A stretch of 64,000 nucleotides of DNA from an uncultured Bacteroidota bacterium (GTDB taxonomy: Bacteria > Bacteroidota > Bacteroidia > Chitinophagales > Chitinophagaceae). The notes under the pieces are model-generated. The model searched no databases. It was not told the DNA's origin and saw only the letters and a program-made list of their open reading frames with translations. Below are positions 3,685 to 60,828 of the stretch, piece by piece. The DNA lies in the NCBI GenBank assembly GCA_963735015.1, contig CAVTJH010000004.1:844419-908418 (forward strand), read 5' to 3'. Position 1 is the first letter of the stretch. Each line of letters opens with the position of its first letter. The position numbers and the translations under genes were made by a program.

Positions 3685-4371
3685 ATGATCAGGATGGTTG
3701 TTTTTGATATGGCAGGCACTACAGTCAACGAAGACAATGTTGTATATAAAACACTTCAGAAATCTATCAATTTAAGCGGATTTGATTTTTCACTATATCA
3801 GGTCATGGAGCAGGGCGCGGGAAGAGAAAAACTGCAGGCTGTCAAAAGTATTTTAAAAGCATATGCTCACATAGAAAACAACGAACTTGCGGATGAGATC
3901 TATCAGAATTTTATTGTTCTTTTAGCCGAAGCTTACAGAAATCTGCACGTACTTCCCCAACCGGACGCGGTTGATTTATTTCAGCATTTGAAGCGTGAGA
4001 ATATCCTGGTTGTTTTGAACACTGGATATAACAGGGAAACGGCACTTGGTCTCATCGAAAAACTTGGATGGGAGAAAGGTAAAGAATTTGATGAACTGGT
4101 TACTGCTACAGATGTAAAAGCGAACCGCCCGGAACCGGATATGATTTGGCTTGCAATGGAAAAGTTTGAAATTGCAGATCCTGGTGAAGTTCTAAAAGTC
4201 GGGGACTCAATTATTGACATTGAAGAAGGAAGAAATGCCGGCTGCCGTCTGAGTATAGGAATTACAACAGGTGCGCATACTTTCAAACAACTCCAAATGG
4301 CCAGCCCGGATTATATTATTAATAATCTGCTCGAACTTATACCAATTATTTCATCGACCGCTGGCCGTTAA
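3685..4371 (+). CDS. Phosphonatase-like HAD hydrolase (PhnX-like, TIGR03351)
   Basis: FDMAGTTV (PhnX-type DxAGT), GREK cap lysine, LNTGY, RPEPDMI, KVGDSIIDIEEG. Confidence 0.8.
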   Translation: MIRMVVFDMAGTTVNEDNVVYKTLQKSINLSGFDFSLYQVMEQGAGREKLQAVKSILKAYAHIENNELADEIYQNFIVLLAEAYRNLHVLPQPDAVDLFQHLKRENILVVLNTGYNRETALGLIEKLGWEKGKEFDELVTATDVKANRPEPDMIWLAMEKFEIADPGEVLKVGDSIIDIEEGRNAGCRLSIGITTGAHTFKQLQMASPDYIINNLLELIPIISSTAGR

Positions 4372-4416
4372 TCGTTAGCCGGATGACCGCAAACTGCCAA
4401 CCGTCAAAAGCCAACC
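4365..4416. repeat. Degenerate 7-mer arm (CCGCCAA family) between convergent stop codons
   Basis: ccgcaaa ctgccaa ccgtcaa aagccaa. Confidence 0.55.
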
Positions 4417-4421
4417 TTCAA

Positions 4422-5472
4422 TTAGTCTTTTCGTGACTCCAGTGTAAAACCAATGCTCGTTCCCACATCCGGAGTGCTGCGCACATGGATGGGTTGTCCG
4501 TGTGCTTCAATTATATGTTTGCATATTGCAAGACCGAGACCCGTTCCACCCTTATCACGACTCCTGGCGGAATCCGTGCGATAAAATCTTTCAAATATCC
4601 GCTGCAGGTGTTCTTCTTCTATACCAATTCCATCATCGGTAATTTCAACGAGTACGTGCTTACCGTCTGTAGAATAGACACTGGCAAGGATATTGCCAAA
4701 TTGCTTTCCATACTTTGATGCATTTTCTACAAGGTTGAGTAACACCATCCGGATCTTTTCTTTGTCAGCAAAAACAATCGTTGGATATTCGCAGCCTTTC
4801 TTAATTCCTGTACGCATGTTCTTATCCTGCATGTTTATGGAAAGAGATTCAAAAACTTCACGAATCAGATCCTGTATCACAAAATTTTGTTTGAGCAATA
4901 ATAATTCTCCCCTTTCCAGCTTCGATATTTCGTCAAGGTCGTTCACCAGATTTACCAGTCTCTCCACATTTCGTTCGGTATTTTCGAGAAAACGCTTTCT
5001 TACATTCAGGTCATCCATAGCACCGTTCAGAAGAGTGTCCACATAACCCTGAATAGCAAAAATGGGTGTTTTAATTCGTGGGAAAGATTCTGCAGGAATT
5101 CCTTTCGGAATGCTTCATTTTTACGCAGCAGTTCGATTTCTTCCATTTGCTTATTTCCCCATCTTTCCACGTCTTCGCCTACTTCATCGATACTTTTTTT
5201 GGGGAGGATATATTTGAAATAGACCTCTTCTTTCCTGGTAGCCTTTGTCTGGTGAATGAATTTATATATCAGCTTGATTTTTCGGTTGATGAACTTTTCG
5301 AAAGTCAAGCTGAATGAGCAGGTATGATCCGGCAAATACGATCAGGAGTGACCCAAGTCCGTTATTCCAGCTTGAAGTAAGTAAATAAATGCCTATTGCT
5401 ACTGAGGATGCAAGACACCGTAGCCGTGAAAGCGGATAATTGCTTAGGAGTAAGATTCTGCGTGTTGAGCAT
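4422..5472 (-). CDS. phoR: PhoR-like sensor histidine kinase (3 apparent frameshifts, near 5415, 5307 and 5072)
   Basis: Starts MLNTQNLTPKQLSAF right after the regulator stop; NLSHELK/TPIFAIQGYVDT H-box across a frameshift; NLVENASKY, DDGIGI, RIFERFYR, GGTGLGLAI. Confidence 0.75.
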
Positions 5473-6153
5473 TTAGTTGACAAACTTATATCCCACCCCT
5501 TTAACGGTAGTAATGCAGTCCAATCCGAGTTTCTGCCGGATCTTGCGGATATGCACATCTATGGTGCGGTCTCCAACAATAACATCATTACCCCATACCT
5601 GGTTTAGGATTTCATTGCGCAAAAATACTCTTCCCGGCCGGGAAGCCAACAGATAAAGCAGCTCGAATTCTTTTTTTGCCAGCGTGATCTGCCTGTCATC
5701 CACCTGTACTTCAAATTTTGTTGGATCAATACTAAGATTTCCTCTTTTGAGTACTTTTTCAGCCGATTCTTTATTAGAACGGCGCAGGAGCGCGCCTACC
5801 CGGCTTACAATTATTTTAGGACTGACCGGCTTGTTTACATAGTCGTCTGCACCGCTTTCCAGCCCTTTAATTTGAAAACCCTCATCATTTAATGCCGTGA
5901 GCATGAGGATGAGGGTGTCGTGAAAAACCGGCTGGGTTCGCAGGATCTCGCAAACCTCCACCCCGCTTTTCTTCGGCATCATAATATCCAGTATGATCAG
6001 GTCGGGCTGTGTTGATTTTGCCTTTAACAGTGCATCTTCGCCATCTTTCGCGGTTGTCACTTCATAACCTTCCCGGACAAGATTATATTGAAGAACTTCA
6101 AGGATGTCCGGCTCATCATCTGCGATTAGAATTTTCTTGCCTTTGGCATCCAT
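5473..6153 (-). CDS. phoB: OmpR/PhoB-family response regulator
   Basis: DDEPDI, LDIMMP, GADDYVNKP, KEFELL, DRTIDVHIRKIR, TVKGVGYK. Confidence 0.8.
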   Translation of the reverse strand: MDAKGKKILIADDEPDILEVLQYNLVREGYEVTTAKDGEDALLKAKSTQPDLIILDIMMPKKSGVEVCEILRTQPVFHDTLILMLTALNDEGFQIKGLESGADDYVNKPVSPKIIVSRVGALLRRSNKESAEKVLKRGNLSIDPTKFEVQVDDRQITLAKKEFELLYLLASRPGRVFLRNEILNQVWGNDVIVGDRTIDVHIRKIRQKLGLDCITTVKGVGYKFVN

Positions 6154-6169
6154 TAACAAAAAATTTACG

Positions 6170-6177
6170 CAAAACTA
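6170..6177 (-). promoter_or_regulatory. Bacteroidota -7 promoter element for the response regulator
   Basis: TAGTTTTG on the minus strand; TTTACA-N5-TTAATA 11-bp-phased repeat at 6215-6231 is a possible PhoB-type box. Confidence 0.5.
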
Positions 6178-6420: not shown

Positions 6421-8641
6421 ATGAAGATAATTATCCGTTTTCTCCTTTTTCCGTGTACCCTGGTATTGTCTTTGCCCCTCTGTGCGCAAACAGTAAATCC
6501 CGGTTTTAAAATTCAACAGGAGCGTAAATTGTGGCATGACAATATTGACAAAGAGCAAAAGAGACTTTTGGCCCTCGATGGAAAGGCAGACGACATCATT
6601 CAGGCCTCCAGGGACGAAAATGTCAATCTCGAGATAGCAGACGTCATGATCCGCCAGGTAGACCTTCTGCAGGAGAAAATCGAAATGGATTCCACACTTA
6701 GCGGGCAAATGAAGATTAAAAATCTTCGTTCCCTGGAATCAATGATCAGGGGGTATAACAACCATTTCAGGAGAAAAGATTTTCCTCCGTCCATGGCCCC
6801 TGCACTTTTTGATGCCTTTGTGAAAGCCATGGAAATAGACAGACTTAACAGTAGTATTGCACCTGTTATAGCCGAAAACAGTTATGGAATAGGAAATATT
6901 CTGGTGGAATGTTTTTTGTTACCCGTTGAAAACCCGGGAGTAAAGGAATCGCGTATTCTGTTGATCCGAAAATATTGCGATTTGCATCCAAATGAAATTT
7001 TCACAATTCTCAGTTCGAACCCGGGTCTTCCTTTCGCCGACAGCCTGATCGTATACGGGGGGAAAAAGAATATCCGAAAGTTGTACGATTATGCTTCCGG
7101 TAATACAATTCTTGCTAGTCGTATTCGCAACAGCAAGGACTCATTGATCAGTATGGTAGGAAAAATCGCCTCCAGTAAAAGCGGTCAGCTTTACCTGCCA
7201 TTTCTTGACAACCTGATCAACCACCGAATTACCATATCTGATATCAATAAAGTAAAAGATAATAATTTAGCTTACTACAAACTTCTGGTGCAAACGAGAA
7301 TGGACTACGCAGCCCGTATGCTTCCGCCACTGCTGGATACAGCTTTGGAAATGGAAGCCCTGACAACTATGCTGCAGAATAAAGGGAAAGATGTATTTGT
7401 GCGTGAAATCAATGCTCTTCACGATAAACCGGCTTCTGTACGGTTTAAGATACTTGATCCACTGAGCCCGGCAGAACTTTATTATCTAATCGTATTAAGT
7501 GAGGATGAAATATACACATCCAGTTATCTTGGTGTTTATGAGCGTATTTTTCAACGGATGTCCGTGCCGCGCGGAGACAGTCTGATTATCCAGATGCATG
7601 GTGATTATTTCAGGAAATTCATAAAAATGGCAGCGGCATACAACAAACTGGATTATTTCCTTGCAACGATGGATAAGGATAATGCGGCAACAATCATGAA
7701 AGCTTTTATTATAGGACTGGAAAGAGCCAATGAAGAAGACGCAGTCGATGTAGCCGATTCTTATAGCAGCATATTCGATAAAAACCCGCCACTTGCTGCA
7801 TTTGTTTTAAATGAAGTAAAATGGAATTATAAAAGAAATCTGCTAAACAGCGACAAGCGTGGCACAGTCATTTATCGCCTGATGGAATCCCTATTTGAAT
7901 CGGCCGATACAACCCAGGCATTTGATCTTTCATCTAAACTTGGTATTCCACCCGTGTATACAGTGAATTATGATTCACTGAAAGATGATAGTGGCCGGGT
8001 TATTCAACAGGTCTTTTTTTATGGGGACGAGGACAAGGACGGACAGAATTCATACCAGGATTTTCTGAAACTGTTTTTAAATAAACCCGAATGGAAAGTA
8101 ACCATGAATCCGACAAAGGAATGGATCTGGATACAATCCATAAGAGGAAAGCCAGTATGGATATTTGCTAATCGTCCTTTATATCGGAGAGGACGATCCG
8201 GATGATAAAGCGCAACACCATCTGGATGATTATCTGTATGACAACAAACTCGAGCCTACTATATATATTCATCGCGGACATAGTTATCATGTTCGTTATA
8301 CTCTCAAACAACTTCAGCCTTCAGCAAAGATTGTTATACTGGGCTCCTGCGGCGGGTATAATAATTTAAGCGAAGTGCTTAGCATTAGTCCGGATGCACA
8401 TATCATTTCTTCCAAACAAGTGGGGACGAAATCGGTGAATGAACCGATTTTGCAAGCCATCAACAACGACCTTTTGGATGGCAGCAATATTGACTGGCTA
8501 CCGATCTGGAAAACATTATCTGAAAAATTCAGGAAAGATCCCGTTGCACGCGAACGATTTGATGATTATATACCCCCATATAAAAATCTCGGCGTCATTT
8601 TTATAAAAGCGTATCGTAATGCCATGGGTGAGGAAGATTAA
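6421..8641 (+). CDS. Large exported hypothetical protein (one +1 frameshift near 8183)
   Basis: Signal peptide ending LCA-Q; ORFs 6421-8205 and 8165-8641 join at ANRPLY/GEDDPD; C-terminal HRGHSY and LGSCGG; TATTTTTG promoter at 6387-6394. Confidence 0.7.
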
Positions 8642-8644
8642 TTT

Positions 8645-8778
8645 AAAAGTAAAAAGTAAAAAAGTATTCGATTATTATGTTTTACTTCTCTATCAAGGAA
8701 TCAGATGAACAGACGGGAACTTAAGACGCCTTACCTTTGTTTTTTGAAATAACTTTTTACTTTTTACTGTTTACTTTA
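8645..8778. repeat. Inverted 7-mer cassette (AAAAGTA / TACTTTT)
   Basis: aaaagtaaaaagtaaaaaag after the stop; aactttttactttttactgtttacttt right before ATG 8779; TACCTTTG promoter (8732-8739) in the loop. Confidence 0.7.
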
Positions 8779-10587
8779 ATGTCTGAGTCCATTTCCAAAA
8801 AAAAAATATTCGATTTTAGTCAGTTAAGCAGGGTACTGCAATATACTGCTCCCTATAAGAAGTGGTTTTACGGATCGATCACACTGTCTATATTGCTGGC
8901 CGTTATTTCGCCACTCCGTCCCTTTCTTATTCAGTATACGGTGAATACCTATATCCGCGGGGGACTAAATGCAGATCTTTCGATCAGGGACCGTATGATA
9001 CAGATGATCATATATGTCACGATCCTTCAAATCGGGATCCTGCTCGTGGAAACAATTCTTCGTTTTTATTTTTCATTTATTACAGCATGGCTGGGTCAGA
9101 CAGTAGTAAAGGATCTGCGGATTGCAGTTTACGAAAAGGTATTATCATTGAATCTTTCACAATACGATAAAACGCCTATCGGAACTCTCACAACTCGAAC
9201 AATCAATGACATTGAGGCTATCAATGATATTTTTTCAGAAGGACTGATTCCCATAGTCTCAGATCTGCTATCCATTGTTTCTATTTTGCTTTTTATGTTC
9301 TATACCAACTGGCAACTCACGCTGATTTGTCTGATCCCCTTTCCAATCCTGATTCTGGCTACTTATTTTTTCAAGGAGTCTGTCAATAGATCATTTATAC
9401 GTGTGCGTAACGCAGTGGCAGCTCTCAATGCTTTTGTGCAGGAACATATAACAGGAATGCAGATTGTGCAGGCATTTGCTTCGGAAGAAAGAGAATATAA
9501 AAGTTTTAGGAACATAAACAGAGAGCACAGAAATGCGAACATCAGGGCAATATTCGCCTATTCTGTATTCTTTCCCATTGTGGAAATAGTACTTGCTTTT
9601 TCTACAGGTTTACTTGTCTGGTGGGGTGCGAGCCTCGTATTGCATCTTCCGGGAAAACAGGCGGCTTTGCTGACCGGTGAAATCATTGCATTCTTTTTAT
9701 ACCTTAATTTATTATTCAGACCACTGCGCCTGATAGCAGATAAATTCAATACACTGCAAATGGGAATGGTGGCCAGTGAACGTGTTTTCAGGGTGCTTGA
9801 TAACAAAGATATAATGACAGATGACGGTATATATGCACCTGTAAAACTCATTGGTAAAATATCTTTTGAACATGTTTATTTTGCGTATACAGATGAACGT
9901 TATGTTTTGAAGGATATTTCGTTCCTGATCGAGCCAGGAGAAACATTAGCGATAGTAGGGCATACGGGCAGTGGGAAGACCTCTATAATCAGCATCCTTA
10001 ATCGCTTATATCCCATTCAAAAGGGACATATCCAGATTGACGGGCGCAACATTGAATCCTATAAACTGAATGTTTTAAGGGCAAATATTGGTGTCGTTTT
10101 ACAGGATGTGTTTCTGTTTTCGGGATCCATTCTTGATAATATCACGATGCGTAACAGGGATATCTCTTTTGACCGCGTAGTAAATGCTGCCAGGCTTATT
10201 GGCATGCATGAATTTATTCTGCGGTTGCCCGGAGGATATGACTATGATGTAATGGAACGCGGCAATACACTTTCTATGGGTCAGCGCCAGTTGCTTTCAT
10301 TTATCAGGGCCTTATTATTTGATCCTTCTATTTTAATATTGGATGAAGCCACTTCCTCCGTAGACACAGAATCGGAAATGCTGATACAGAATGCTATCGG
10401 CAAGCTGATCGCAAACCGTACTTCCATTGTCATTGCACATAGGCTGTCTACAATCCGAAAAGCAAGTAAAATACTTGTGCTTGATAAGGGTGAAATAAAA
10501 GAAATAGGAACCCATGATCAGCTGATGGAGAAAGAAGGGTTTTATTTTAAACTTCATCAGATGCAATTTGAAAAGCTTAACGCTTAA
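8779..10587 (+). CDS. ABC exporter, fused permease/ATPase (MsbA/MdlB-like)
   Basis: TM domain plus GHTGSGKT, LSMGQRQ, LILDEATS, IAHRLST; the ORF-track extension to 8737 is only repeat sequence. Confidence 0.9.
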   Translation: MSESISKKKIFDFSQLSRVLQYTAPYKKWFYGSITLSILLAVISPLRPFLIQYTVNTYIRGGLNADLSIRDRMIQMIIYVTILQIGILLVETILRFYFSFITAWLGQTVVKDLRIAVYEKVLSLNLSQYDKTPIGTLTTRTINDIEAINDIFSEGLIPIVSDLLSIVSILLFMFYTNWQLTLICLIPFPILILATYFFKESVNRSFIRVRNAVAALNAFVQEHITGMQIVQAFASEEREYKSFRNINREHRNANIRAIFAYSVFFPIVEIVLAFSTGLLVWWGASLVLHLPGKQAALLTGEIIAFFLYLNLLFRPLRLIADKFNTLQMGMVASERVFRVLDNKDIMTDDGIYAPVKLIGKISFEHVYFAYTDERYVLKDISFLIEPGETLAIVGHTGSGKTSIISILNRLYPIQKGHIQIDGRNIESYKLNVLRANIGVVLQDVFLFSGSILDNITMRNRDISFDRVVNAARLIGMHEFILRLPGGYDYDVMERGNTLSMGQRQLLSFIRALLFDPSILILDEATSSVDTESEMLIQNAIGKLIANRTSIVIAHRLSTIRKASKILVLDKGEIKEIGTHDQLMEKEGFYFKLHQMQFEKLNA

Positions 10588-10716
10588 CGCTTAACGCTTA
10601 ACGCTGGTTTAGCTTCGCAAATTTAAGCGCATTTTTTTATTACTTTCAGCTCTTTTAAAAATCAAAAAAGTTAGTTTTAATAAAAAGCTATAGGCTTTTG
10701 GCGTTAAGCGGTAAGC
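10575..10716. repeat. Inverted 7-mer cassette (GCTTAAC x4 / degenerate GTTAAGC x4)
   Basis: GCTTAAC at 10575, 10582, 10589, 10596; tataggc ttttggc gttaagc ggtaagc at 10689-10716. Confidence 0.8.
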
Positions 10717-10749
10717 ATAAAAAGCTCTTGCTAATTACCCCCCGACCCT

Positions 10750-15082: not shown

Positions 15083-15186
15083 TAATTGTCAATTGTTAAT
15101 GGTCAATGGTCATTGGCTGATGGTTGGGAATTTGTACATATCCATTCACTGGCAATCAAAAATTGATCATTAACAATTGACAATTA
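15083..15186. repeat. Inverted 7-mer cassette (AATTGTC family), 24/25-nt terminal inverted repeat
   Basis: TAATTGTCAATTGTTAATGGTCAAT (15083-15107) versus ATTGATCATTAACAATTGACAATTA (15162-15186). Confidence 0.85.
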
Positions 15187-20890: not shown

Positions 20891-21052
20891 AGTATGGGAG
20901 TATGGGAGTATGGGAGTATGGGAGTATGGGAGTATGGGAGTGTGAACCCAACCACTTGGATTAATTGATCTTGTTAAAAATATAAAAATGAGACTTGTTT
21001 GTTGGCGTTTGAATATAAACCCCTAATTCCCATACTCCCATACTCCCATACT
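20891..21052. repeat. Inverted 8-mer cassette (AGTATGGG x6 / CCCATACT x3)
   Basis: Perfect units at 20891-20938 and 21029-21052 with an AT-rich spacer. Confidence 0.9.
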
Positions 21053-25089: not shown

Positions 25090-25199
25090 AGTGTGAGAGT
25101 GTGAGACTGTATTTAATGGATGAATATTATTTTTATTCATTATGACAATATACTTTTTTATTTTGATGACTTAGACATTTCACTCTCACACTCTCAAAT
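25090..25199. repeat. Inverted 8-mer cassette (AGTGTGAG / CTCACACT), overlapping the ruvC stop
   Basis: agtgtgagagtgtgagactgt ... tttcactctcacactctcaaat. Confidence 0.65.
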
Positions 25200-27554: not shown

Positions 27555-27689
27555 TAATTTTTTGATTTCGCTATAACCCTCGACATGAAAAAGCTCCAAA
27601 CGCAGATTTGCAATAGGCCCTGAAGTCGGCAGCCGGGAAAATAAGTAACTCTTTATCCAAATCTGGTAAAATAGCATTTGACACATTTC

Positions 27690-32320: not shown

Positions 32321-32394
32321 TAAGTTTGAAAAATTGAAAGATTGAAAAAATATATTCGATTTTTCACATTCGCAATTTTTCAAATTTTTCATTT
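32321..32394. repeat. Inverted 8/9-mer cassette (TTGAAAAA / TTTTCAAA)
   Basis: gtttgaaaaattgaaagattgaaaaaat ... ttttcacattcgcaatttttcaaatttttcattt then ATG. Confidence 0.55.
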
Positions 32395-32877: not shown

Positions 32878-32891
32878 TTACCTTTGCGCCC

Positions 32892-33332: not shown

Positions 33333-33377
33333 GGCTCAAAGCTGAAAGCTTTCAGCATTTAATTTCGAATTTAGAAT

Positions 33378-34238: not shown

Positions 34239-34275
34239 GCGTTATATATTAACTTCATCCCGAACGTCAAACGTA

Positions 34276-35595: not shown

Positions 35596-35609
35596 TAAGA
35601 CTCCTTGAA

Positions 35610-36770: not shown

Positions 36771-36857
36771 GTGCTGATTTTAGTGATCAAAGTTAAACAG
36801 ATTTTCAAGAGCTTCATAAGATATGCCTTATACTTATCTTAGCGTAAATAAACAGTT

Positions 36858-38222: not shown

Positions 38223-38233
38223 AATTTACAAAC

Positions 38234-38632: not shown

Positions 38633-38634
38633 AA

Positions 38635-38740
38635 AAGTATGGGAGTATGGGAGTATGGGAGTGAGGACTCATTTTTCAAATCCTAATCATATAAATTTAA
38701 TTTTTATTTTTAATTCCCATACTCCCATACTCCCATACTT
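38635..38740. repeat. Inverted 8-mer cassette (AGTATGGG x3 / CCCATACT x3)
   Basis: Perfect 26-bp inverted repeat, 38635-38660 versus 38715-38740, filling the gap between convergent stops. Confidence 0.9.
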
Positions 38741-38743
38741 GTT

Positions 38744-40206: not shown

Positions 40207-40262
40207 AGCAATTTTTTAACGGCGTTCAATATAACACTAATTTAGATTTTAAGTATTTGTAT

Positions 40263-41917: not shown

Positions 41918-42092
41918 AAGCACCATCCTTTGATTACGGCCGGTTCGTAGGTCTGAATTGACCGGACATTATTCTCAGCAATAACCTGGTGGTTGTTCCG
42001 GATTAGGAAAATGGATTCATAGGAAGTAATTCCCTGGACGAGCGATGAAAATAAACAAAATTCCTGATACAAGGAAGCGCCCATACCTGATC

Positions 42093-42743: not shown

Positions 42744-42826
42744 AGATAAAAATTAAATATCCGATATTCGGAATTCCGTCGGTGTTAAAACTAAAATTAA
42801 AAGATTGAACCAGAAAATCATTTCCT

Positions 42827-43915: not shown

Positions 43916-44020
43916 CGGTTACGGGTTATGGGTTATGAGATATGGGTTATGAGATAGTTATGAAACTTTTATAATTAATAAATAATAATCAACAACTCAT
44001 AGCCCATATCTCATAACCCA
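43914..44020. repeat. Inverted 7-mer cassette (GGTTATG/AGATATG family)
   Basis: 43929-43955 matches the reverse complement of 43994-44020 at 25/27; fills the gap between convergent stops. Confidence 0.85.
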
Positions 44021-44761
44021 TCAAAGTCCAAGTACTGTTTTCAATTTAACATATCCTGACTTGCTCACAGGCACACGGGCGCCAGATTTCAAAATGGCAA
44101 GGTGACCATCTTTTTCATAAGGATCAATACGCGTTATTTCTGTAATATTCACCATGAACGATCGATGGGTTCTTACAAATTGATTTATATTCAGCACTCT
44201 TTCAAAATGACCCATGGTCTTGTTTTTGAGGAAAGCGCCTTCCTTTGTATGAACTTTAACGTAATCATCAGCGGCTTCGAGAAAATGAATCTCTTCAATC
44301 GGGATAATGCGGATCTTTCCTGAAAGTTTTACGACAACCCGATGTAGTTCAGCCGGACTATTTGAAACAGTTTCAAGTAATGGAGCCAGTTGTTCTTTAA
44401 CTGGCATGGATCCTTCTGTTTGTTTCCATTTTGATATCGCTTTATCAAAACGATCCTGGCTAAAAGGCTTAAGAAGGTAATCTATCGCATGACTCTCAAA
44501 TGCTTTTATTGCAAACTCGTCAAAAGCCGTTGTAAAAATTACAGACGGTGGTTCCTCTATCAATTCCAGCATTTCGAAGCCATTTATTTTTGGCATCTGT
44601 ATATCAAGAAAAATAAGGTCGGGTTGCCATTGCTGAATGGCTTTAACACCTTCAAAACCATCGTTGCATTCCGCGATCAGTGTAAGTTCCGGATGATTTT
44701 GCAGGTATTCCCTGATAATGGATCTTGCCAGCGGTTCATCATCAATGATAATAATTTTCAT
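44021..44761 (-). CDS. LytTR-family response regulator
   Basis: DDEPLAR, FLDIQMP, DYLLKP, FVRTHRSFMVN, PVSKS. Confidence 0.92.
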   Translation of the reverse strand: MKIIIIDDEPLARSIIREYLQNHPELTLIAECNDGFEGVKAIQQWQPDLIFLDIQMPKINGFEMLELIEEPPSVIFTTAFDEFAIKAFESHAIDYLLKPFSQDRFDKAISKWKQTEGSMPVKEQLAPLLETVSNSPAELHRVVVKLSGKIRIIPIEEIHFLEAADDYVKVHTKEGAFLKNKTMGHFERVLNINQFVRTHRSFMVNITEITRIDPYEKDGHLAILKSGARVPVSKSGYVKLKTVLGL

Positions 44762-45800: not shown

Positions 45801-45809
45801 ATATTTCAG

Positions 45810-46169
45810 TTAAATAATTTCCAGAAATTGATGTTTGCTGTTGTGCAGAATATGAGCAGCTTTTCTATTTGTAAGCTCAATATACAATTCCGCATTATCC
45901 GTTTCCTGTATACGAGAATACAACTCAGCACCATCGAGTAAACCACTGAGTTTGTATAGTTCAGCCACATTAATAAATTTCCATTGTACCAGTTTCTGAT
46001 CTTCGTTAAAGAATTTGTCCTCTTCCCTGGCTCCAAGCTCAGCAGATTTTTCAAAAGCCTCCTGCGCGCTGTCTGCCTGGATTAACCTGAGTTGTTCGTC
46101 GAACTGGGCAGTATGATTTCCCTGACCGCAGATTATCCTGTAAACAATTTTAGTAAGATACCAGTTCAT
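45810..46169 (-). CDS. DUF4288 family protein
   Basis: WYL.K, FDEQLRLI.A, V.WKF, DGAELYS. Confidence 0.65.
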   Translation of the reverse strand: MNWYLTKIVYRIICGQGNHTAQFDEQLRLIQADSAQEAFEKSAELGAREEDKFFNEDQKLVQWKFINVAELYKLSGLLDGAELYSRIQETDNAELYIELTNRKAAHILHNSKHQFLEII

Positions 46170-46199
46170 AGTTTTGATTTAAAAATGATCGGATAAAGT

Positions 46200-47102
46200 T
46201 TAATAGTTTTTTATTTCAATACCCCCAAAAACAGAGGTTCCATCTATAATGAGTACTTTCTGATGATTTGTAATTCCAATATTCTGTCTCTTGTCTTCAA
46301 TATTGCCAAAAACAGATGTGAGCTGGGTTCTCACTTCCCAATTCGAAGGAACAATCAGTTTAGTCCCGCCCATTATCTGAGTGATATCAAGGGAAGCGGT
46401 TCCCTGAATATCTGCCTGGCTCAGATTTATTTCGGCTCCCCCCATAAATATGGTGATATCGCCTCCTTTAAAATTTTTAGAAATAATATTCTTGTTTATT
46501 CCTCCAAAAACAGCAGTTGCATCGATATAATCTTCAGAAGAGAAATTCCGGGAACCTGATCCTTCATCACGGGTGGAACCTGTATTCGCGTCGGTTTCAA
46601 CACCCGGATTGGGTGGCGTATTCATAAAGCCAGGATATCCTCGTCTCTGACGTCTTCTCTGCCACCTGTCCCAGTCTCTCCGGTGCCATCTGTCGTGCCA
46701 GTCATGATCTGCCCAGTATGGCCTTTTTGGTCGGATCAGCATAATAAGTCCTACCACAATGATAATAGCCGGCCAAATAAAACGATGAATATTGAGATCC
46801 GGAATCATCTGGTCCATAAAAAAGAAAGTTCCGATCAGAATCATGATCAACCAACCGGGTCCACGAAAAGCATGGGCCAAACCACTGAAAATACCGATTA
46901 CGATCAGCAATATTTGCCAGCTGAAAATCCAGTCAGGTAATCCAATGCCCATCTGTCGTAAAAGCAGCAAACCACCTACTACAACCAGTCCAAGCGGGAC
47001 CCAAACCCGACCACCACTATGCCTTCGCCTGATCCGGTCGTTTATATCACTCTTTATGTCTTCAGCCATATCTTTTCTTATATCGTCTCCCGAATTTTCC
47101 AT
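46200..47102 (-). CDS. LiaF-like cell-envelope stress membrane protein (DUF5668 plus DUF2154-like)
   Basis: 4 TMs (FSWQILLI.IG, WPAIII.VG) and a C-terminal FGG repeat domain. Confidence 0.78.
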   Translation of the reverse strand: MENSGDDIRKDMAEDIKSDINDRIRRRHSGGRVWVPLGLVVVGGLLLLRQMGIGLPDWIFSWQILLIVIGIFSGLAHAFRGPGWLIMILIGTFFFMDQMIPDLNIHRFIWPAIIIVVGLIMLIRPKRPYWADHDWHDRWHRRDWDRWQRRRQRRGYPGFMNTPPNPGVETDANTGSTRDEGSGSRNFSSEDYIDATAVFGGINKNIISKNFKGGDITIFMGGAEINLSQADIQGTASLDITQIMGGTKLIVPSNWEVRTQLTSVFGNIEDKRQNIGITNHQKVLIIDGTSVFGGIEIKNY

Positions 47103-47156
47103 TGTTTTTAAGTTGAAGTAAAACTAACGCAGTATGACCTTTTATTCAAGCATATA

Positions 47157-47206
47157 TAGGCCACTGTGCTCAGAAAACCGGTGAAGGCGGGTATTTTTCC
47201 GGTAAG
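47157..47206 (-). promoter_or_regulatory. Putative LytTR binding site upstream of the liaF-like operon
   Basis: taggccac/ccggtgaa/ccggtaag at 47157, 47178, 47199 (21-bp period); weak TAGTTTTA -7 element at 47119-47126. Confidence 0.45.
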
Positions 47207-47216
47207 AATGCCAAGA

Positions 47217-48851
47217 TCATAATAACTGGAATCGGTCACCATCAAATAGTCCCAGATCACTTATTTTGAGGTGGGGGATTACGAGGAGTGCCATGAAAGA
47301 AAGTGTCATAAAAGGAGCCTGTAGTCTCGAACCCATTTTTTTTGCACGGGCATCCAATGTTGTATAAGCTTCAGCCACCCGATACCCGTCCTCCGTGCTC
47401 ATCAGTCCTGCCACTGGAAGGGCCAGATTTATTACCATTTCGTCGTCAGCAATACTGATACCGCCTTTTCCAGCGATAACTGCATTGACCGCGCGACTAA
47501 GCGAATCATCACTGGTACCTACAGCTACTATATTATGGCTATCATGTGCAACCGAAGAAGCCAGTGCACCCGTTTTCAATCCAAAGCTTTTAATAAAAGC
47601 CTTTGAGACAGGCGCTTTCTTATAACGGTTCAGCACAACGATTTTTAATATATCGTTGCCGGGATCCGCCTTCCACATACCATCCACCGCTTTCATTTCA
47701 GTTTTATATTTTCCGGTGATAAGCTGGCCGTCAAGAGCTTCAATAACGGGATAAGAATATGAAGTATCCTGTTGGGGATATGCGGGAAATTTAAAGTCCC
47801 CGGGTTTCGTGAGAGCACATTCAAATTGGTTGGGTTCCGTTGAGCTTTTGACTGAATCCAGCTTTGTTTTTCCGTTTTCCGCAACCAGCTGACCTTTGAT
47901 ATAAGTTTGAAGGACCTGAAAATGATTCAGGTCCTTCAGCAGGATAAAATCAGCCGGATCATTGGGTCTGAGATAACCGACCTCAAGATTATAATGTTTT
48001 ATCGGGTTGATGCAGGCTACAGTAAGTACTTTGAACGGATCGATTTTTTTTGCGACGGCCCTGGCACAAAGCTGGTTTATATGTCCGCTCACGAGACTAT
48101 CGGGATGCTTGTCGTCGCTGCAGAACATCATATTTTCCCAATGATCGGACAGCAGATCTGCAAGAGCTTCAAAATTCCTGGCTGCACTTCCTTCCCTTAT
48201 CAGGATCTTCATGCCAAGTCCGAGCTTCTCCAATGCTTCATCTGCAGTGAAACATTCATGATCCGTGCTGATACCGGCGAGAACATAATTTCTCAATGCG
48301 TCACCACGCAACCCAGGCGCATGACCATCTATGGGTTTATGATATTTTTTTGCCAGTGATATCTTCTTCATTACTTCCGGATCTCCATGCAGTACGCCAG
48401 GAAAATTCATCATCTCGCTTAAATATCTGATATCGGGTCTCGATAAAAGTTGATCCGTTTCAGCCGCATGCAGTGCAGCGCCTGCTGTTTCAAATTCTGT
48501 AGCAGGCACACAGCTGGGAGAACCGAAGTAAAAATAGAAAGGTGTTTGCCTTCCGTTTTCAATCATAAAATCAACACCTGAAATACCAAGTACATTAGCG
48601 ATTTCATGGGGGTCACTCACGGTCGCAATCGTTCCATGAACTACAGCAAGCCTGGCAAATTCAGAAGGCAGCAGCATGGAACTTTCAATATGCACGTGTG
48701 CATCAATAAATCCAGGACAAATAAATACTTCTGGCACCGCTGAATCTGCCGATAATTCCTGAATTGAAAATATCTTTTTGTCCGCGATGGAGATTTCTGC
48801 AGGAAAAATTCGCTTAGCAGCAATATCAATCAGTTTTCCCTTGATCACCAT
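47217..48851 (-). CDS. ade: Adenine deaminase
   Basis: PGFIDAHVHIESS, SDPHEIAN, DGHAP, TDHE, REGSAA, VAHDSHN. Confidence 0.93.
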   Translation of the reverse strand: MVIKGKLIDIAAKRIFPAEISIADKKIFSIQELSADSAVPEVFICPGFIDAHVHIESSMLLPSEFARLAVVHGTIATVSDPHEIANVLGISGVDFMIENGRQTPFYFYFGSPSCVPATEFETAGAALHAAETDQLLSRPDIRYLSEMMNFPGVLHGDPEVMKKISLAKKYHKPIDGHAPGLRGDALRNYVLAGISTDHECFTADEALEKLGLGMKILIREGSAARNFEALADLLSDHWENMMFCSDDKHPDSLVSGHINQLCARAVAKKIDPFKVLTVACINPIKHYNLEVGYLRPNDPADFILLKDLNHFQVLQTYIKGQLVAENGKTKLDSVKSSTEPNQFECALTKPGDFKFPAYPQQDTSYSYPVIEALDGQLITGKYKTEMKAVDGMWKADPGNDILKIVVLNRYKKAPVSKAFIKSFGLKTGALASSVAHDSHNIVAVGTSDDSLSRAVNAVIAGKGGISIADDEMVINLALPVAGLMSTEDGYRVAEAYTTLDARAKKMGSRLQAPFMTLSFMALLVIPHLKISDLGLFDGDRFQLL

Positions 48852-48904
48852 GTAGCCTGAATAAATATCTTTTTTATTTTAATTTTAAAACTTCAGTCAT
48901 CCTG

Positions 48905-48930
48905 CTTTTAGCGTTGAGCTTTAAGCGTTA
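48905..48930. repeat. Orphan 7-mer arm overlapping the trmD stop
   Basis: Minus strand TAAcgct taaagct caacgct aaaagc. Confidence 0.55.
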
Positions 48931-49605
48931 AACGTCCAAAAGACCGGGCCTTTTCTCTGATGTTTTGCGCAGGGCCGCTTCATGCCGCCATTCTGCTATT
49001 TTAACAGGGTCCCCACTTAAAAGTATTTCAGGAACCTTCCACCCTCGAAATTCTGCCGGCCTTGTGTAAACCGGCGGAGCAAGCAGGTTGTCCTGAAAGG
49101 AATCGAAAAGGGCCGAAGTTTCATCATTTAATACCCCGGGCAGCAGGCGCCCAATGGCATCCGTTAAAACAGCAGCCGGTAATTCCCCGCCACTTAATAC
49201 ATAGTCGCCAATGGAAATTTCACGGGTTATAAAATGCTCGCGTATGCGTTCGTCAATTCCTTTGTAGTGGCCGGAAATGATCAATAAATTTTCATTCAGA
49301 GAAAGTGAATTGGCTATGGGTTGGGTAAGCAGCTCACCATCGGGACTCATGAAAATGATTTCATCATAAGTCCTTTCTTTTTTCAAAGATTCTATAGCAT
49401 TGGCCAGGGGTTCGCACATCATTACCATCCCTGCACCACCTCCATACTGATAATCATCCACCTGTCCATATTCATTGACTGCCCATTTTCTTAAAGGGTG
49501 GACAAAAATTTCAAGCAGCTTTTTTTCCTTTGCCCTTTTTAAGATAGAATGAGCGAAGGAACTTTCCAGTAATTCGGGTAATACACTGATGATGTCGATT
49601 CGCAA
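48928..49605 (-). CDS. trmD: tRNA (guanine37-N1)-methyltransferase (TTG start)
   Basis: [43 protein letters not shown]; TATTTTTG promoter at 49646-49653. Confidence 0.95.
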
Positions 49606-49723
49606 TTTGAAAATTTGATGGACTAAGGTAGGAGTTGTTGAAGGGCAAAAATATCTTTTACGCATCCTTTCTTAAGGTTTACGAGTTGATTTTTGGGATA
49701 AGGAAGCATGAGACAATATGTCA

Positions 49724-49891
49724 CTTCTCTTATATTCCTTCTATATTCATTCTGTGTTAATTCCGGGTTTTTTCGAGAGTTCTTCGAGAGTTCTTCGAGA
49801 GTTCTTTGGGAATCCTCGAAGGACTCTCGAAGGAATATAGAAGAAATATGGTAGCAATATCGAAGAAACCAGGTAGTAGCAAGGACGAAAC
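49724..49891. repeat. 11-mer periodic inverted array (TTCGAGAGTTC x3 plus degenerate units)
   Basis: Perfect units at 49772, 49783, 49794; complementary tcgaaggactc/tcgaaggaata/tagaagaaata units downstream. Confidence 0.7.
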
Positions 49892-49909
49892 CTGGAAAGA
49901 CACCTGACT

Positions 49910-50311
49910 TCATGGCAGTTCAGACTTCGAATTGCTCATATCATCCAGGTCACGTCTTTGCTTTTTTGTGGGTCTTCCTACTTTGCTTAATCTTTTACCG
50001 GTATGAAAGGAAGCGGCCTGGAATTGAATCCGTTCTACTTCTTCAGCAGGTGTTGTATCAAGATAGTTTTTTATAGCTTCTGAATAAGCGAGCCGGTGAT
50101 CCAGCAATCCTGTAACCTTAATGCGCCATCGCCTGGCTTCCGTTTTCACCTCATATTCATCTCCAATATGAACGTGTTTGGACGGCTTGACCTGTCCTGA
50201 TTCATTTTTCACTTTTCCTTTTTCACATGCCTCTGACGCAAGGCTCCTGGTTTTAAATAATCTTATGGCCCATAGATATTTATCTATTCGTAATTTTTCT
50301 GTCACTCCCAT
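49910..50311 (-). CDS. hslR: S4-domain RNA-binding protein Hsp15
   Basis: RIDKYLWAIRLFKTRSLA, GRPTKKQRR. Confidence 0.88.
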   Translation of the reverse strand: MGVTEKLRIDKYLWAIRLFKTRSLASEACEKGKVKNESGQVKPSKHVHIGDEYEVKTEARRWRIKVTGLLDHRLAYSEAIKNYLDTTPAEEVERIQFQAASFHTGKRLSKVGRPTKKQRRDLDDMSNSKSELP

Positions 50312-50316
50312 ATATT

Positions 50317-50465
50317 CGTTGGCGGTTGGCGGTTAGCGGTTGGCAGTTGGCGGATAGCGCTTGGCCCATCATCTCCCGACTCGGCGGGATTCGGCGGGCG
50401 ATGCAGCAGGCGGATGACCGTGTTTTGTTTTGCCTCACACTCCCATACTCCCATACTCTCATACT
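50317..50465. repeat. Chimeric cassette: GGTTGGC x5 arm, GC-rich core, CCCATACT arm
   Basis: 7-mers at 50317-50351; 8-mers at 50434-50465 supplying the dipeptidase TGA. Confidence 0.8.
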
Positions 50466-51838
50466 TTCTTCAGGCTCAATTCTGCGAAGTATTGATGGAA
50501 ATAAGGGATCGTTTCTATGCCCTTATAAAAATTTGCGATATTAAATTTTTCATTGGGTGAATGCAGGTTGTCACTGTCAAGACCAAAACCCATGAAAACA
50601 ATTTTAATTCCCAACTCTTTTTCCAATAATGAACAAATGGGAATACTACCGCCTCCACGTTGTGGCACCGGCTTTTTACCAAAACTGGATTCGATGGCTT
50701 TTTCTGCGGCGATATATGCAAGTGAATCCAATGGAGTCATATAGGGTTCGCCTCCATGCAATTCAAAACAATTTACACTTACACCGGCCGGGGCTATTTT
50801 TTTGAAATAATCCAACAGCAGTCTTGTGATTTTACCTGAAGTCTGGTTGGGAACAAGTCTCGCTGATATTTTAGCCGAAGCTTTGGAAGGAAGCACGGTT
50901 TTGGAACCTTCACCCTGGTATCCTCCCCATATTCCATTGAGTTCGAGCGTGGGCCGGATACCTGTGCGTTCGTTTGTACTAAATCCTTTTTCACCCCAAA
51001 GTGCCCTGACACCCAGATCCTTCATATATTCCTCTTCATTGAAAGGAGCAGCAGCCATTTTTTTTCTGTCTGCAGCAGAGGATTCCAGCACATCATTGTA
51101 AAAGCCGGGAATAGTAATATGGTTGTTTTCGTCGTGACAGCTAGCGATCATCCTGGCAAGCATCGTTATGGGGTTTGCAATAGCACCTCCATACACACCG
51201 CTGTGAAGATCGCGATTGGGTCCCGTTACCTCAACCTGGATATAAGCCAGCCCCCGGACGCCGATTTCTATAGAAGGAGTTTCAAGACTGATCATAGAAG
51301 TATCGCTGATCAGGATCACGTCAGCTTTCAATAACTCCTTATGAGATGCTACGAAGGCACCAAGACTTGGTGAGCCGATTTCTTCTTCCCCTTCAATGAT
51401 AAATTTAATATTACAGGAGAGCGAGCCGGTGCGGTTTAAAATTTCCATGGCTTTCACGTGCATAAAAAACTGTCCCTTATCATCTGCGGATCCGCGGGCA
51501 TAGATCATCCCGTTTTTTATAGTGGGTTCAAATGGCGGACTATCCCAGAGATTCAGAGGATCGGCTGGTTGCACGTCATAATGCCCATAAACTAGGATCG
51601 TGGGTTTTGCAGGGTCTACTATTTTTTCTGCATATACAACAGGATGCCCGGCGGTTTCATAAATCTCAGCTTTTTCAGCTCCTGACTGCAGAAGTGATTT
51701 TTTTACAGCCTCAGCGCATCTAAGCATATCAGGTTTGTGAATGCTATCGGCACTTACAGAAGGAATTCTGAGCATTGCGAGTAGCTCTTCCAAAAACCTG
51801 TCTTTGTTTTCTTCCTGATATTTCTTCCATGCGTCCAT
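50459..51838 (-). CDS. M20 family dipeptidase
   Basis: YGHYDVQP, ARGSADDKGQ, EGEEEIGS, DLHSG, HSPNE. Confidence 0.92.
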   Translation of the reverse strand: MDAWKKYQEENKDRFLEELLAMLRIPSVSADSIHKPDMLRCAEAVKKSLLQSGAEKAEIYETAGHPVVYAEKIVDPAKPTILVYGHYDVQPADPLNLWDSPPFEPTIKNGMIYARGSADDKGQFFMHVKAMEILNRTGSLSCNIKFIIEGEEEIGSPSLGAFVASHKELLKADVILISDTSMISLETPSIEIGVRGLAYIQVEVTGPNRDLHSGVYGGAIANPITMLARMIASCHDENNHITIPGFYNDVLESSAADRKKMAAAPFNEEEYMKDLGVRALWGEKGFSTNERTGIRPTLELNGIWGGYQGEGSKTVLPSKASAKISARLVPNQTSGKITRLLLDYFKKIAPAGVSVNCFELHGGEPYMTPLDSLAYIAAEKAIESSFGKKPVPQRGGGSIPICSLLEKELGIKIVFMGFGLDSDNLHSPNEKFNIANFYKGIETIPYFHQYFAELSLKKV

Positions 51839-51845
51839 AGAAATG

Positions 51846-51913
51846 ATGAGTTATGCGTTATGAACTATGAGTTCTGAATGGTCATCGGTCAACGGTCATC
51901 GGTCAACGGTAAC
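51846..51913. repeat. Stacked 7-mer arms (ATGAGTT x4 and CGGTCAW x5)
   Basis: atgagtt atgcgtt atgaact atgagtt; tggtcat cggtcaa cggtcat cggtcaa cggtaac. Confidence 0.8.
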
Positions 51914-51934
51914 CGCCCGGGGTCGCGAATTTAC

Positions 51935-52930
51935 CTAAAAAGGAGTGTTCACATCATGCTTTTTATTCGGAATGGCATTTTGCATTTCCCATTCGATTTT
52001 TTTAACAAAAGGATGTTCGCGCACTTTGCAGTCGTTTTTAATACAGACGGGACAGCAGGTAGGGATGCAACCATCTGAATGAACAAAAAATTCCATAACA
52101 GATCCAAATTCCGATTGAATGAGTTTGCGGAGCCTGTCAATTTCATCGTGCGCCTCGCGAACATTCAGAAACCATGGCACCGTCATATGACAATCCACAT
52201 GCAACACATTGCCGAATTTTATAACACGCAGATTATGGATATCAATCCAGTTCGGCAGACGGTTATTATTTAAAAGAGCAATTACTTTTCCCAGAATTTT
52301 TTCATCGGCTTCATCCATAATACCCGCAACCGACTTTCGGGCAATCCGATAACCGATGAACATGATCACGAGCGACATAATGATCGCTACAATACTATCC
52401 AGTTGATGTATATGCGTAAGATAAATCAGAACCAGTCCGACCATGATGGCGAGTGTTGCATAAGTGTCGGACTTCAGATGATGACCACTGGCCTGCAGGG
52501 CCTCTGAATCATTTATCTTTCCTTTTTTTACAGCATACAGGCCAACTATAAAATTTATAATAGCGGAAATGCCGATTAGTAAAATACCATAATTGAGTTG
52601 TTGCAATACCCTGGGGTGAATGAGTTGCATGATTGCCTCATAAATAATAAAAACTCCGGCCAGCATGATCAGCGTACCCTCGATGGCTGCGGAAAGAAAT
52701 TCTGCCTTGCCATGCCCATAGGGATGATTGATATCTCGCGGTTTATAGGCAATTGTCAGACTATATAATCCCACCAAACCTGCGATCACATTTACAATAC
52801 TTTCCAGTGCATCGGTAAGGATGGCAACAGAGTGAGTAAGCCACCACGCAATTATTTTTATCGAAAATAAAAGCACGGCTATGAATAGGATCCAGGACTG
52901 AATGCGGAGGGTCTCTTTGCTGTTATCCAC
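51935..52930 (-). CDS. Cation diffusion facilitator family transporter (probable GTG start)
   Basis: SVAILTDALES, HPYGHGKAE, HLKSD, DIHNLR, HVDCH. Confidence 0.9.
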   Translation of the reverse strand: MDNSKETLRIQSWILFIAVLLFSIKIIAWWLTHSVAILTDALESIVNVIAGLVGLYSLTIAYKPRDINHPYGHGKAEFLSAAIEGTLIMLAGVFIIYEAIMQLIHPRVLQQLNYGILLIGISAIINFIVGLYAVKKGKINDSEALQASGHHLKSDTYATLAIMVGLVLIYLTHIHQLDSIVAIIMSLVIMFIGYRIARKSVAGIMDEADEKILGKVIALLNNNRLPNWIDIHNLRVIKFGNVLHVDCHMTVPWFLNVREAHDEIDRLRKLIQSEFGSVMEFFVHSDGCIPTCCPVCIKNDCKVREHPFVKKIEWEMQNAIPNKKHDVNTPF

Positions 52931-58767: not shown

Positions 58768-58774
58768 TGTAGTC

Positions 58775-58892
58775 CCGCCAATGGCGGGATGGAATTGTAG
58801 TAAATGAGGGAAAGTGAAAATTGAATGTGGAAATGATAATATGGTAACGTGGTATTTTTTCACGGCCAACTGCCAATCGCCAACCGCCAACG
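58775..58892. repeat. Composite: TCCCGCC palindrome, MITE-like left arm, GCCAACC x4 arm
   Basis: TCCCGCC-aat-GGCGGGA; aattgtag..ggaaatgataat as at 19680-19730; gccaact gccaatc gccaacc gccaacg. Confidence 0.65.
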
Positions 58893-60058: not shown

Positions 60059-60061
60059 TAA

Positions 60062-60246
60062 AAGTCTAAAGCCTGAAGCTTAAGGCCTAAAGCTTAAAGC
60101 TTAAGACAGACAGGGTTAGGCTGAAGGCAAAAGGCGCAAGGCAAAAGGCTCAAGGTGTAATTTCAATATAAAGGTCCCAGTCTTTGTGAAGGCTTTGGAA
60201 TAGCTTTAGAATAGCTTTGGAATAGCATTGGAACAGGTTTGGAACA
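60062..60246. repeat. Three stacked arms (AAGCYTA x6, AGGCAAA x5, GCTTTGGAATA x5)
   Basis: 60062-60103, 60118-60155 and 60192-60246 between convergent stops. Confidence 0.85.
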
Positions 60247-60251
60247 GCCCG

Positions 60252-60728
60252 TCAAATCCAGCGCCTGACCTTCTTTTTATAATTGGTATATGCTTCACCG
60301 AATGCTCTGGTTAAATACTTTTCCTCCCTGCGAATAACCAGAAATGTAATAAACGCAACCAGGAATGGGGTCAGAATCAATGTCCACCAGTTCCCAAATT
60401 GGAGGGCTACGCCTAGATAAATAAATAACATCCCCAGGTACATGGGATTCCGGGTATAAGAATAAATTCCCGTTGTTTGCAGGGAATTAGCCGGTTTAGT
60501 TGGAATGATTGAATTTTTTGTTTTTATAAATTTAAACATAGCAGGAAATATGAAGAATACTCCGGCGAGGTATAATACATATCCAATGAAAAAAGCAGGT
60601 TGTTTATGAAAGAAAAATGCGCCTTTGATGGTAAGGTACCCTTGCAGTATCATAGAAAGAAGAAAAAAACCGGCGTAAAAAAGTGGCGGGGGGATGAATA
60701 CTCCGGGGCTGTCTTTGGCATTTTTCAT
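60252..60728 (-). CDS. Isoprenylcysteine carboxylmethyltransferase (ICMT/PEMT) family membrane protein
   Basis: IPPPL, TTGIYSYTRNPMYLG, REEKYL..FGEAY..Y..VRRW; the ORF-track N-terminal extension is repeat-derived. Confidence 0.85.
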   Translation of the reverse strand: MKNAKDSPGVFIPPPLFYAGFFLLSMILQGYLTIKGAFFFHKQPAFFIGYVLYLAGVFFIFPAMFKFIKTKNSIIPTKPANSLQTTGIYSYTRNPMYLGMLFIYLGVALQFGNWWTLILTPFLVAFITFLVIRREEKYLTRAFGEAYTNYKKKVRRWI

Positions 60729-60751
60729 GTAACGAGGTGTTGGTTTATGAA

Positions 60752-60828
60752 AGGTTAATGGTGTATGGTTAATGGTGTATGGAAATGGAGTTACCACACC
60801 CTCACACACTCACACTTGCTTTTGGCTT
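60752..60828. repeat. Stacked arms after the leuS stop (ATGGTTA/ATGGTGT 7-mers, CTCACAC, GCTTTTG)
   Basis: aggttaatggtgtatggttaatggtgtatggaaatgg; ccacaccctcacacactcacac; gcttttggctttt. Confidence 0.7.

Follow-up and report, generated by a model that had tools for sequence, protein, structure and literature searches.

Mobile hairpins anchored at stop codons and linked to four-helix-bundle genes across the genome of an uncultured Chitinophagaceae bacterium

Background

Short hairpin cassettes, made of inverted tandem arrays of 7- and 8-nt units, are described here from the genome of an uncultured soil bacterium of the Chitinophagaceae (4.97 Mb, 88% complete), and in most detail from one stretch of 64,000 nt, C4:844419-908418, which is the window referred to throughout. 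The closest described systems are the intervening sequences (IVSs) of 23S rRNA in Coxiella (the S23p IVS) and Leptospira, which bear an open reading frame (ORF) and terminal inverted repeats, and for whose ORF a role in mobility has been hypothesised (PMC4990558; statements from this and the other papers cited follow excerpts of them). In the REPIN/RAYT system an inverted doublet and its spacer are copied as a unit, a few protein genes accompany many non-autonomous hairpins, singlets are remnants, and the doublets are random in extragenic space (PMC3116915). Xanthomonas holds 70-75 inverted pairs of G-rich heptamers, with the G-rich strand at most 50 bp from stops on the sense strand (PMC4692102), and TAACTGA repeats occur in Beggiatoaceae and some Bacteroidetes (PMC4679880). 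Avd, a protein of diversity-generating retroelements, is a basic four-helix pentamer similar to the S23 proteins and has an RNA stem-loop as partner (bioRxiv 10.1101/2023.10.23.563531).

The cassettes reported here are a real genome-wide family of mobile hairpins, anchored at stop codons and tied to genes for four-helix-bundle (4HB) proteins of TIGR02436/PF05635. As in the rRNA IVSs, a PF05635 protein is found inside inverted repeats that form a stem; unlike the IVSs, the cassettes lie between protein genes and behind stops (all 8 own 4HB loci and the window sites are outside rRNA), and they come in hundreds of mostly gene-less copies with clade-specific tandem 7/8-mers as arms. The unit-wise copying, the numerical excess of non-autonomous hairpins and the remnant singlets of the REPIN/RAYT system recur here, but the arms are tandem arrays and not palindromic REPs, no Y1 HUH transposase was found here or in the 24 octamer-rich genomes treated below, and the hairpins are stop-anchored instead of randomly placed. 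[quoted passage not shown] With the short tandemly repeated repetitive (STRR) sequences of cyanobacteria, a descriptive class that implies no mechanism, they share intergenic tandem heptamers far above chance. The Xanthomonas/Nostoc (PMC4692102) and TAACTGA (PMC4679880) repeats are intergenic heptamer arrays as well, read there as G-quadruplex or regulatory repeats, and the main texts of both papers contain none of the terms sought for a 4HB or IVS link. Like Avd, the 4HB protein has a basic four-helix subunit; unlike the Avd retroelements, no reverse transcriptase is present here, and the structural likeness is moderate. We found no literature linking repeat arms to TIGR02436/PF05635 genes, in a search that left most subscription papers outside. 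The family is best read as a relative of the rRNA IVSs, likely moved with an Avd-like 4HB protein.

Results

4HB genes within inverted arms

The genome contains 8 TIGR02436 matches, none of them in the window, and all 8 loci lie between protein genes. By eye, 8/8 of these genes stand within inverted arms of the window's unit families (6/8 with a strict detector), in accordance with an earlier sequence-only reading of the window, which held that similar arms often flank TIGR02436 genes. Further, we compared 104 genomes of the genus, 55 of which carry TIGR02436. A set of 98 4HB loci (8 own and 90 from the top 150 matches listed, with 159 further matches outside the set) has strict inverted arrays at 47 loci; the count among 739 small control genes is 3, and two of these are themselves 4HB genes. 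The inverted-repeat score exceeds the cut-off, set at the 99th percentile of control genes, at 73 of the 98 loci, against 11% of cross-locus pairs. Among the 80 best genome-collection matches to protein clades A and B, 67 of 79 scorable loci pass, against 30% of cross-locus pairs, and 108 of the 118 arrays at these matches have period 8.

The 4HB proteins carry PF05635 in 7/7 intact copies, are four-helix and mostly basic (median pI 8.8), and find their closest fold matches in the pentamers 2RLD and 2GSC, with Avd at a TM of about 0.65. Repeat unit and protein group agree at 8/9 octamer, 10/11 GGTTATG and 5/6 AATTGTC loci (this last group not being a clade), and at 20/30 AAGCCTA/AACGCTT and 25/32 GGTTGAC-like loci, spread over 4-13 sites per group. 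The unit follows the 4HB protein clade as an association and not as proven co-evolution, because kin share labels. The 7/8-mers fall into about five unit groups tied to five 4HB protein groups, with AAAAGTA outside them, and not into at least ten unrelated families as first proposed; the supposed 9-mer AATTTGAAA is the 8-mer AATTTGAA.

One 4HB gene, L002 (G000 C3:3001789-3002286), is kept at the same site across the genus together with 21 relative loci, and the arms at this site change unit together (ATCGTTT, GGTTGAC, GGTTGGC, ATGGTGG, ACAGTTG). This joint change suggests concerted arm evolution or repeated replacement.

Other cargo between arms was sought by eye, among matching arms or the top 40 of 1924 flank scores of this genome. 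Apart from 4HB genes, what stands there looks like ordinary genes lying between separate elements.

Arrays across the genome

Genes were called by dicodon-based models made for this analysis, and intergenic counts refer to the 3748 regions longer than 20 nt. These contain 665 arrays of period 7-11, compared with about 1 per shuffle; 393 have period 7, 237 period 8 and 29 period 11, and the coding DNA holds only 40 arrays of period 7/8. About one intergenic region in eight (452) bears an array. Of the same-unit pairs 110 are inverted and 28 direct, and arm polarity is fixed (52/52 for AGTATGGG). The arms have a median of 4.1 units, and the spacers between them a median length of 71 nt and 72% A+T.

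Within the window about 19-20 intergenic regions carry the named arrays, close to the 20 or so first noticed. Inverted pairs are intact at eight sites (8645, 10575, 15083, 20891, 25090, 32326, 38636 and 43917); at five others the arms do not match and come from two or three families, and a further three carry just one arm or a degenerate one. Seven of the eight intact cassettes form more stable folds than their shuffles (z -2.6 to -8.7). The cassette at 8640-8780 does not (z -1.4), and neither do the degenerate site at 4370-4425 and the mixed site at 50315-50464. Rfam gave no match in the window. Intrinsic-terminator scoring of 32001-51900 picked out no intact cassette, the only terminator-like repeat site there being 33333..33360. 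In the orthologues of 15083-15186 in G014 and G015 the arms, by eye, surround an apparent intrinsic terminator, a hairpin plus T-run; no such structure is present in the window copy.

Anchoring at stop codons

Among 794 array-boundary pairs, 262 lie within 10 nt of a stop, against 90 expected. The contact is made by the outer arm ends, of which 244/377 facing a stop and 30/234 facing a start are within 10 nt; for the inner ends the counts are 10/382 (stop) and 2/229 (start). Starts show no enrichment of arms (35/510 against 36 expected). The sequence-only reading was thus right that arms begin a few nucleotides from stops and show a positional bias, but not in having the reverse-complement arm generally finish where the next gene begins or ends (the cassette ending at 15186 lies 216 nt from the next start); of its idea that the cassette targets gene junctions, the targeting of stops holds and that of both gene ends does not. 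Several genes are frameshifted, hence some true stops are unannotated.

Where a tandem junction retains 60 nt or more of intergenic DNA besides the cassette, the cassette touches the stop in 21 of 31 cases, against 4.1 expected, and short junctions alone therefore do not account for the anchoring. As a by-product of short junctions, stop adjacency is ruled out at tandem junctions and is a real contributor at convergent ones. Octamer arms facing no stop are preceded by a stop-like triplet in 18 of 45 cases, against a background of 11.7%, which indicates a sequence motif rather than ribosomes. The flanks of 42 octamer pairs gave no sign of target duplication (their longest shared word measures 2.79, against 2.85 in permutations; p 0.71), in a test where cassette ends are fuzzy and 2-nt duplications could escape detection.

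Copying, spread and turnover

At two unrelated sites, L006 and L008, leader and gene are 95% identical and the flanks 45%. A truncated copy at C3:2618609 has lost its middle part by deletion and still has both arms and 43 codons of the N-terminus. Among the empty cassettes 18 of 84 usable spacers cluster (12, 2, 2, 2), above the shuffle maximum, and one pair is 95% identical over 62 nt. The largest gene-less family has 13 dispersed copies with a homologous spacer, in both orientations relative to the adjacent gene; it includes the window cassette 20891-21052, which matches C4:206540 at 87% over 75 nt. Gene-less cassettes are therefore not merely scars. On the transcribed strand of 59 tandem empties no G-U bias is seen (99 G-U against 100 A-C mismatches), which gives no sign of selection on the mRNA, out of which the original suggestion had the cassette folding as a long hairpin; filled cassettes show a weak bias (164 against 130, p 0.054).

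For 77 of the 90 relative 4HB loci a corresponding junction was located in this genome. Some 35 of these have a gap of filled size here (mostly two long-held sites), about 20 are armed without a gene, and 21 are without detected arms, some only 14-57 nt long. The view of the cassettes as empty or scarred landing sites is supported by the armed sites of this genome that relatives have filled, and is incomplete, since empties also copy as units.

The window junctions were compared in 15 relatives, two of them only partly covered. The junction at 38632 shows at least seven unit types or no arms across these relatives, and those at 43915, 25075, 32320 and 60058 have another unit, or no element, in some. 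The cassette 25090..25196 is absent from the closest relative, G107; the porV/ispF junction (32326..32391) is only 10-16 nt in G102, G014 and G021; and the junction orthologous to 8645..8777 is 11-26 nt in 6 of 13 relatives.

Candidate mobilising enzymes

The octamer pattern is abundant in 24 of the 104 genus genomes. A protein like that of L006 (at least 58% identity) is found in 22 of these 24 and in none of the 80 others, which include 12 close kin without arrays. The search for mobilising enzymes covered four enzyme families. HUH Y1 (PF01797) is present in 0/24 octamer-rich and 54/80 other genomes, and RVT_1 (PF00078) in 1/24 and 32/80; both are absent from the own genome, at its 88% completeness, which has 4 IS110 and 2 DDE_Tnp_1 matches. 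Five IS loci of these two families were examined: 3/3 IS110 loci are without these arms, and a GGTTATG pair stands close to one of the two DDE loci. Ten Y1 loci had no arms of these families. The median number of arrays per 100 kb is 0 in ten 4HB-negative genomes, 3.75 in ten distant positives and 20 in the 15 syntenic relatives.

Sites in the window

The window carries Bacteroidota-typical housekeeping genes, the closest named matches of its proteins being labelled Puia sp., uncultured Bacteroidetes or Chitinophagaceae. Its repeat sites are collected in Table 1.

Table 1. Repeat sites of the window, in window coordinates; z is the folding score against shuffles
Positions	Strand	Feature	Remarks
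4372..4421	.	degenerate GGTTGAC/GGTTGGC-group arms, fill convergent junction	judged from sequence; z -0.07
8645..8777	.	empty cassette, AAAAGTA / ACTTTTT arms	3 nt past stop, ends just before next ATG; z -1.4
10575..10721	.	empty cassette, AACGCTT/AAGCCTA group	ends about 55 nt before atpB; z -2.6
15083..15186	.	empty cassette, AATTGTC group	directly past atpA stop; next start 216 nt away; z -7.8
20891..21052	.	empty AGTATGGG cassette	4 nt past true pdxA stop (minus strand); 13-copy shared-spacer family
25090..25196	.	empty AGTGTGAG cassette	abuts true ruvC stop (minus strand); z -4.3
32326..32391	.	empty AATTTGAA-type octamer cassette	porV stop to ispF start; z -4.2
33333..33360	+	degenerate AAGCCTA-group arm	directly past dUTPase stop
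38636..38739	.	empty AGTATGGG cassette	convergent pair, 3-4 nt from both stops; z -8.7
43917..44021	.	empty GGTTATG cassette	fills convergent anmK / LytTR junction; z -8.7
48900..48927	-	single AACGCTT/AAGCCTA-group arm	directly past trmD stop
49731..49876	.	11-mer arrays, TTCGAGAGTTC and partner	separate family, without stop anchoring
50318..50465	.	mixed site, GTTGGCG left arm, octamer right arm	REP-like palindrome between arms; z +1.3
51846..51910	.	mixed site, ATGAGTT left arm, CGGTCAA right arm	X1 contig identical
54445..54566	.	mixed site, AAGCCTA and AGTGTG-type left arms, CCGCCAA/CGGTCAA right arm	START-domain gene stop
58795..58891	.	mixed site past rimM, degenerate octamer left arm, GCCAACC right arm	
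60067..60155	+	AAGCCTA-group left arms	past stop at 60058; junction 0 nt in G103, G110, G114
60192..60248	.	11-mer array GCTTTGGAATA	separate family; alone among 18 11-mers in lying near a stop
60753..60815	.	mixed site, GGTTAAT/ATGGTGT left arm, CACACACT right arm	near leuS stop

The AAAAGTA unit of 8645..8777 is assigned to no 4HB clade. An ABC-transporter gene takes its final four codons and its stop from the left arm of 10575..10721 (10575-10587); the same end is found in G015, it is decayed in G018, and in G014 an octamer arm supplies the stop. At 50318..50465 the octamer right arm overlaps the stop of an M20-peptidase gene, and a contig of run X1 is identical up to 50463. REP-like CCCGCC...GGCGGG palindromes adjoin repeat arms at 50370-50405 and 58772-58795, and no Y1 transposase was found in the genome. 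The junction at 27554-27690 is about 1 kb longer in 11 of 14 relatives, the extra DNA being without a 4HB gene; here a gene was probably lost from this genome.

Contigs of run X1, possibly the source sample, are identical to the window over 49576-50463, 51080-52630 and 9808-10601 and reproduce several arrays letter for letter, hence the arrays in those three stretches are unlikely to be long-read errors. Several window genes are frameshifted, including pdxA, ruvC, ffh and leuS. As X1 contigs are without one base at window positions 8183, 20044 and 23438, and pdxA and ruvC read through in relatives, the frameshifts are probably assembly errors.

11-mers and GxxExxY genes

The 11-mer arrays had been read as sharing the architecture of the 7/8-mers. 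They are not part of that system, having different neighbours and no stop anchoring, with 1 of 18 stop-side boundaries within 10 nt. About 11 of the 29 11-mer arrays adjoin a paralogous gene pair, DUF6266 (3 of 4 proteins scanned) and a 188-aa partner family without Pfam match. A near-identical duplicated pair of such neighbours lies at C3:2797779-2799530 and C3:2848987-2850640, and both window 11-mer sites (49731-49876, 60192-60248) are without a DUF6266 or partner neighbour. The trmD-S4 junction has 11-mer arrays with differing units in most relatives.

For GxxExxY genes, also named in the sequence-only reading as flanked by similar arms, we found no match in this genome, which rules them out as cargo here. 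In genus relatives (L358-L387) GxxExxY genes do have inverted flanks, at 21 of 29 scorable loci, with other units, which by eye are degenerate and 9-10 nt long. They make up a parallel type of cassette that this genome does not have.

Discussion

Taken together, we think it fairly probable that the 7/8-mer hairpins are gene-less copies of an element in which the same arms surround a TIGR02436/PF05635 4HB gene, and that both forms copy behind stops with the 4HB protein helping in trans. The empties would arise by internal deletion and then spread independently, copy number would change by slippage, and mixed and single arms would come from later insertions and partial deletions. As to how copying might work, we see about even chances for a mechanism in which a basic 4HB pentamer would recognise, within an extruded hairpin of single-stranded DNA, its cognate arm of about four units, and enzymes of host repair or recombination would insert the copy at a short TAA/TAG/TGA-like target. 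Targeting and selection would leave the elements at stop codons, and effects on mRNA would be secondary. Since the empties lack a G-U excess and the 13-copy family is found in both orientations, we favour copying at the DNA level by the 4HB pentamer and host enzymes. The mechanism that mobilises the stop-anchored hairpins is unproven, and a role of the 4HB protein in movement is what we infer from sequence data. A bolder version is that of an element class that moves without a transposase, recombinase or reverse transcriptase of any known family. Each subunit of an Avd-like pentamer would read one unit of a clade-specific 7-/8-base code, and the pentamer would drive the copying of its own cassette, along with hundreds of gene-less hairpins, to stops. 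This we regard as tentative, and we lean against it.

Several observations weigh against a mobile element served by its 4HB protein. The likeness to Avd is weak, with Pfam bAvd at E 0.013 in 1 of 7 proteins and Foldseek at E 0.07-0.13, below an unrelated plant four-helix bundle, and the literature, as far as the excerpts consulted extend, reports no activity or binding for the 4HB protein. The 4HB gene is co-oriented with its upstream gene at 89 of 94 loci, which fits either expression or an RNA route, and many 4HB genes stay put, as at the site with 21 relative loci, where the units drift. Occurrence of GxxExxY genes in inverted arms means that the 4HB gene may be cargo too. Further, a spacer profile of the 13-copy family finds only the 13 copies it was built from and nothing in the fetched filled cassettes, so the parent of this family is unseen. 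No 4HB gene stands in the syntenic stretch of any window junction in the 15 relatives, where the sequence-only reading had looked to sister genomes for filled alleles, and no transposition intermediate or clean empty/filled strain pair was seen in the X1 contigs, whose joints were set aside because their sides are short and they may stem from other copies of the repeats. The stop-like triplet signal is confined to the octamers, three heptamer families showing none at the offsets tried. In the genome comparison, array density is at background level in 5 of the 10 distant genomes with 4HB, so the gene is not sufficient; the sampled 4HB-negative genomes are a separate, GC-richer lineage; and genomes and proteins are kin, so that their co-occurrence is not independent. 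The protein groups rest on a quick tree, in which group C is not a clade.

These points bear on four other explanations. It is unlikely that the hairpins are moved by another enzyme in trans, such as a transposase of the IS110 or DDE type or a nuclease not yet recognised, with the 4HB gene, like GxxExxY, as mere cargo. Such enzymes are at hand in the IS110 and DDE_Tnp_1 matches, the 4HB protein is without a known catalytic site, and the unrelated GxxExxY family has inverted flanks as well; however, the 3 IS110 and 10 Y1 loci examined, in a search that covered four enzyme families, lack these arms, a GGTTATG pair lies near one DDE locus of two, the 42 octamer pairs show no target duplication, and the unit follows the 4HB clade. 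We find it quite improbable that the hairpins are host-selected 3'-end RNA elements (RNase III sites, stabilisers or terminators) whose spread is incidental, with the 4HB proteins as RNA-binding regulators. Stop anchoring and stable predicted folds would suit that role, as would the RNase III excision of the Coxiella IVS stem (PMC4990558) and the regulatory role proposed for TAACTGA repeats (PMC4679880). Yet the transcribed strand of the empties has no G-U excess, the 13-copy family takes both orientations, Rfam gave no match, relatives' junctions switch unit or lose the element, and dispersed homologous spacers require copying.

Little credence can be given to retro-mobility, where RNase III would free the hairpin RNA, an Avd-like pentamer hold it and a borrowed reverse transcriptase insert it behind stops. 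The Avd-like fold, the IVS precedent and the co-orientation with the upstream gene speak for such a route, but this genome, at 88% completeness, has no RVT_1, nor have 23 of the 24 octamer-rich ones, and the empties are without strand bias in pairing or orientation. Most doubtful of all is that every empty cassette is an immobile, in-place remnant of a filled insertion. One truncated copy exists, and of 77 sites that relatives have filled about 20 carry arms but no gene here; against this stand 452 array-bearing intergenic regions compared with 8 genes, the 13 empties whose common spacer is found in no fetched filled cassette, and the empty pair that is nearly identical over 62 nt.

Conclusions

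The association of stop-anchored hairpins with 4HB genes joins two open questions, the function of the S23p/4HB proteins (PMC4990558) and the excess of intergenic heptamers in bacteria (PMC4692102). The present genome is a good test case, as it holds several clades with cognate units and a young gene-less family, with no HUH transposase or reverse transcriptase found. The host is affected in roughly one of every eight intergenic regions, and the final codons of some of its genes are supplied by arms. If the pentamer does read a repeat code, the S23p/IVP family would gain a function, and the excess of heptamer repeats in bacteria would be explained.

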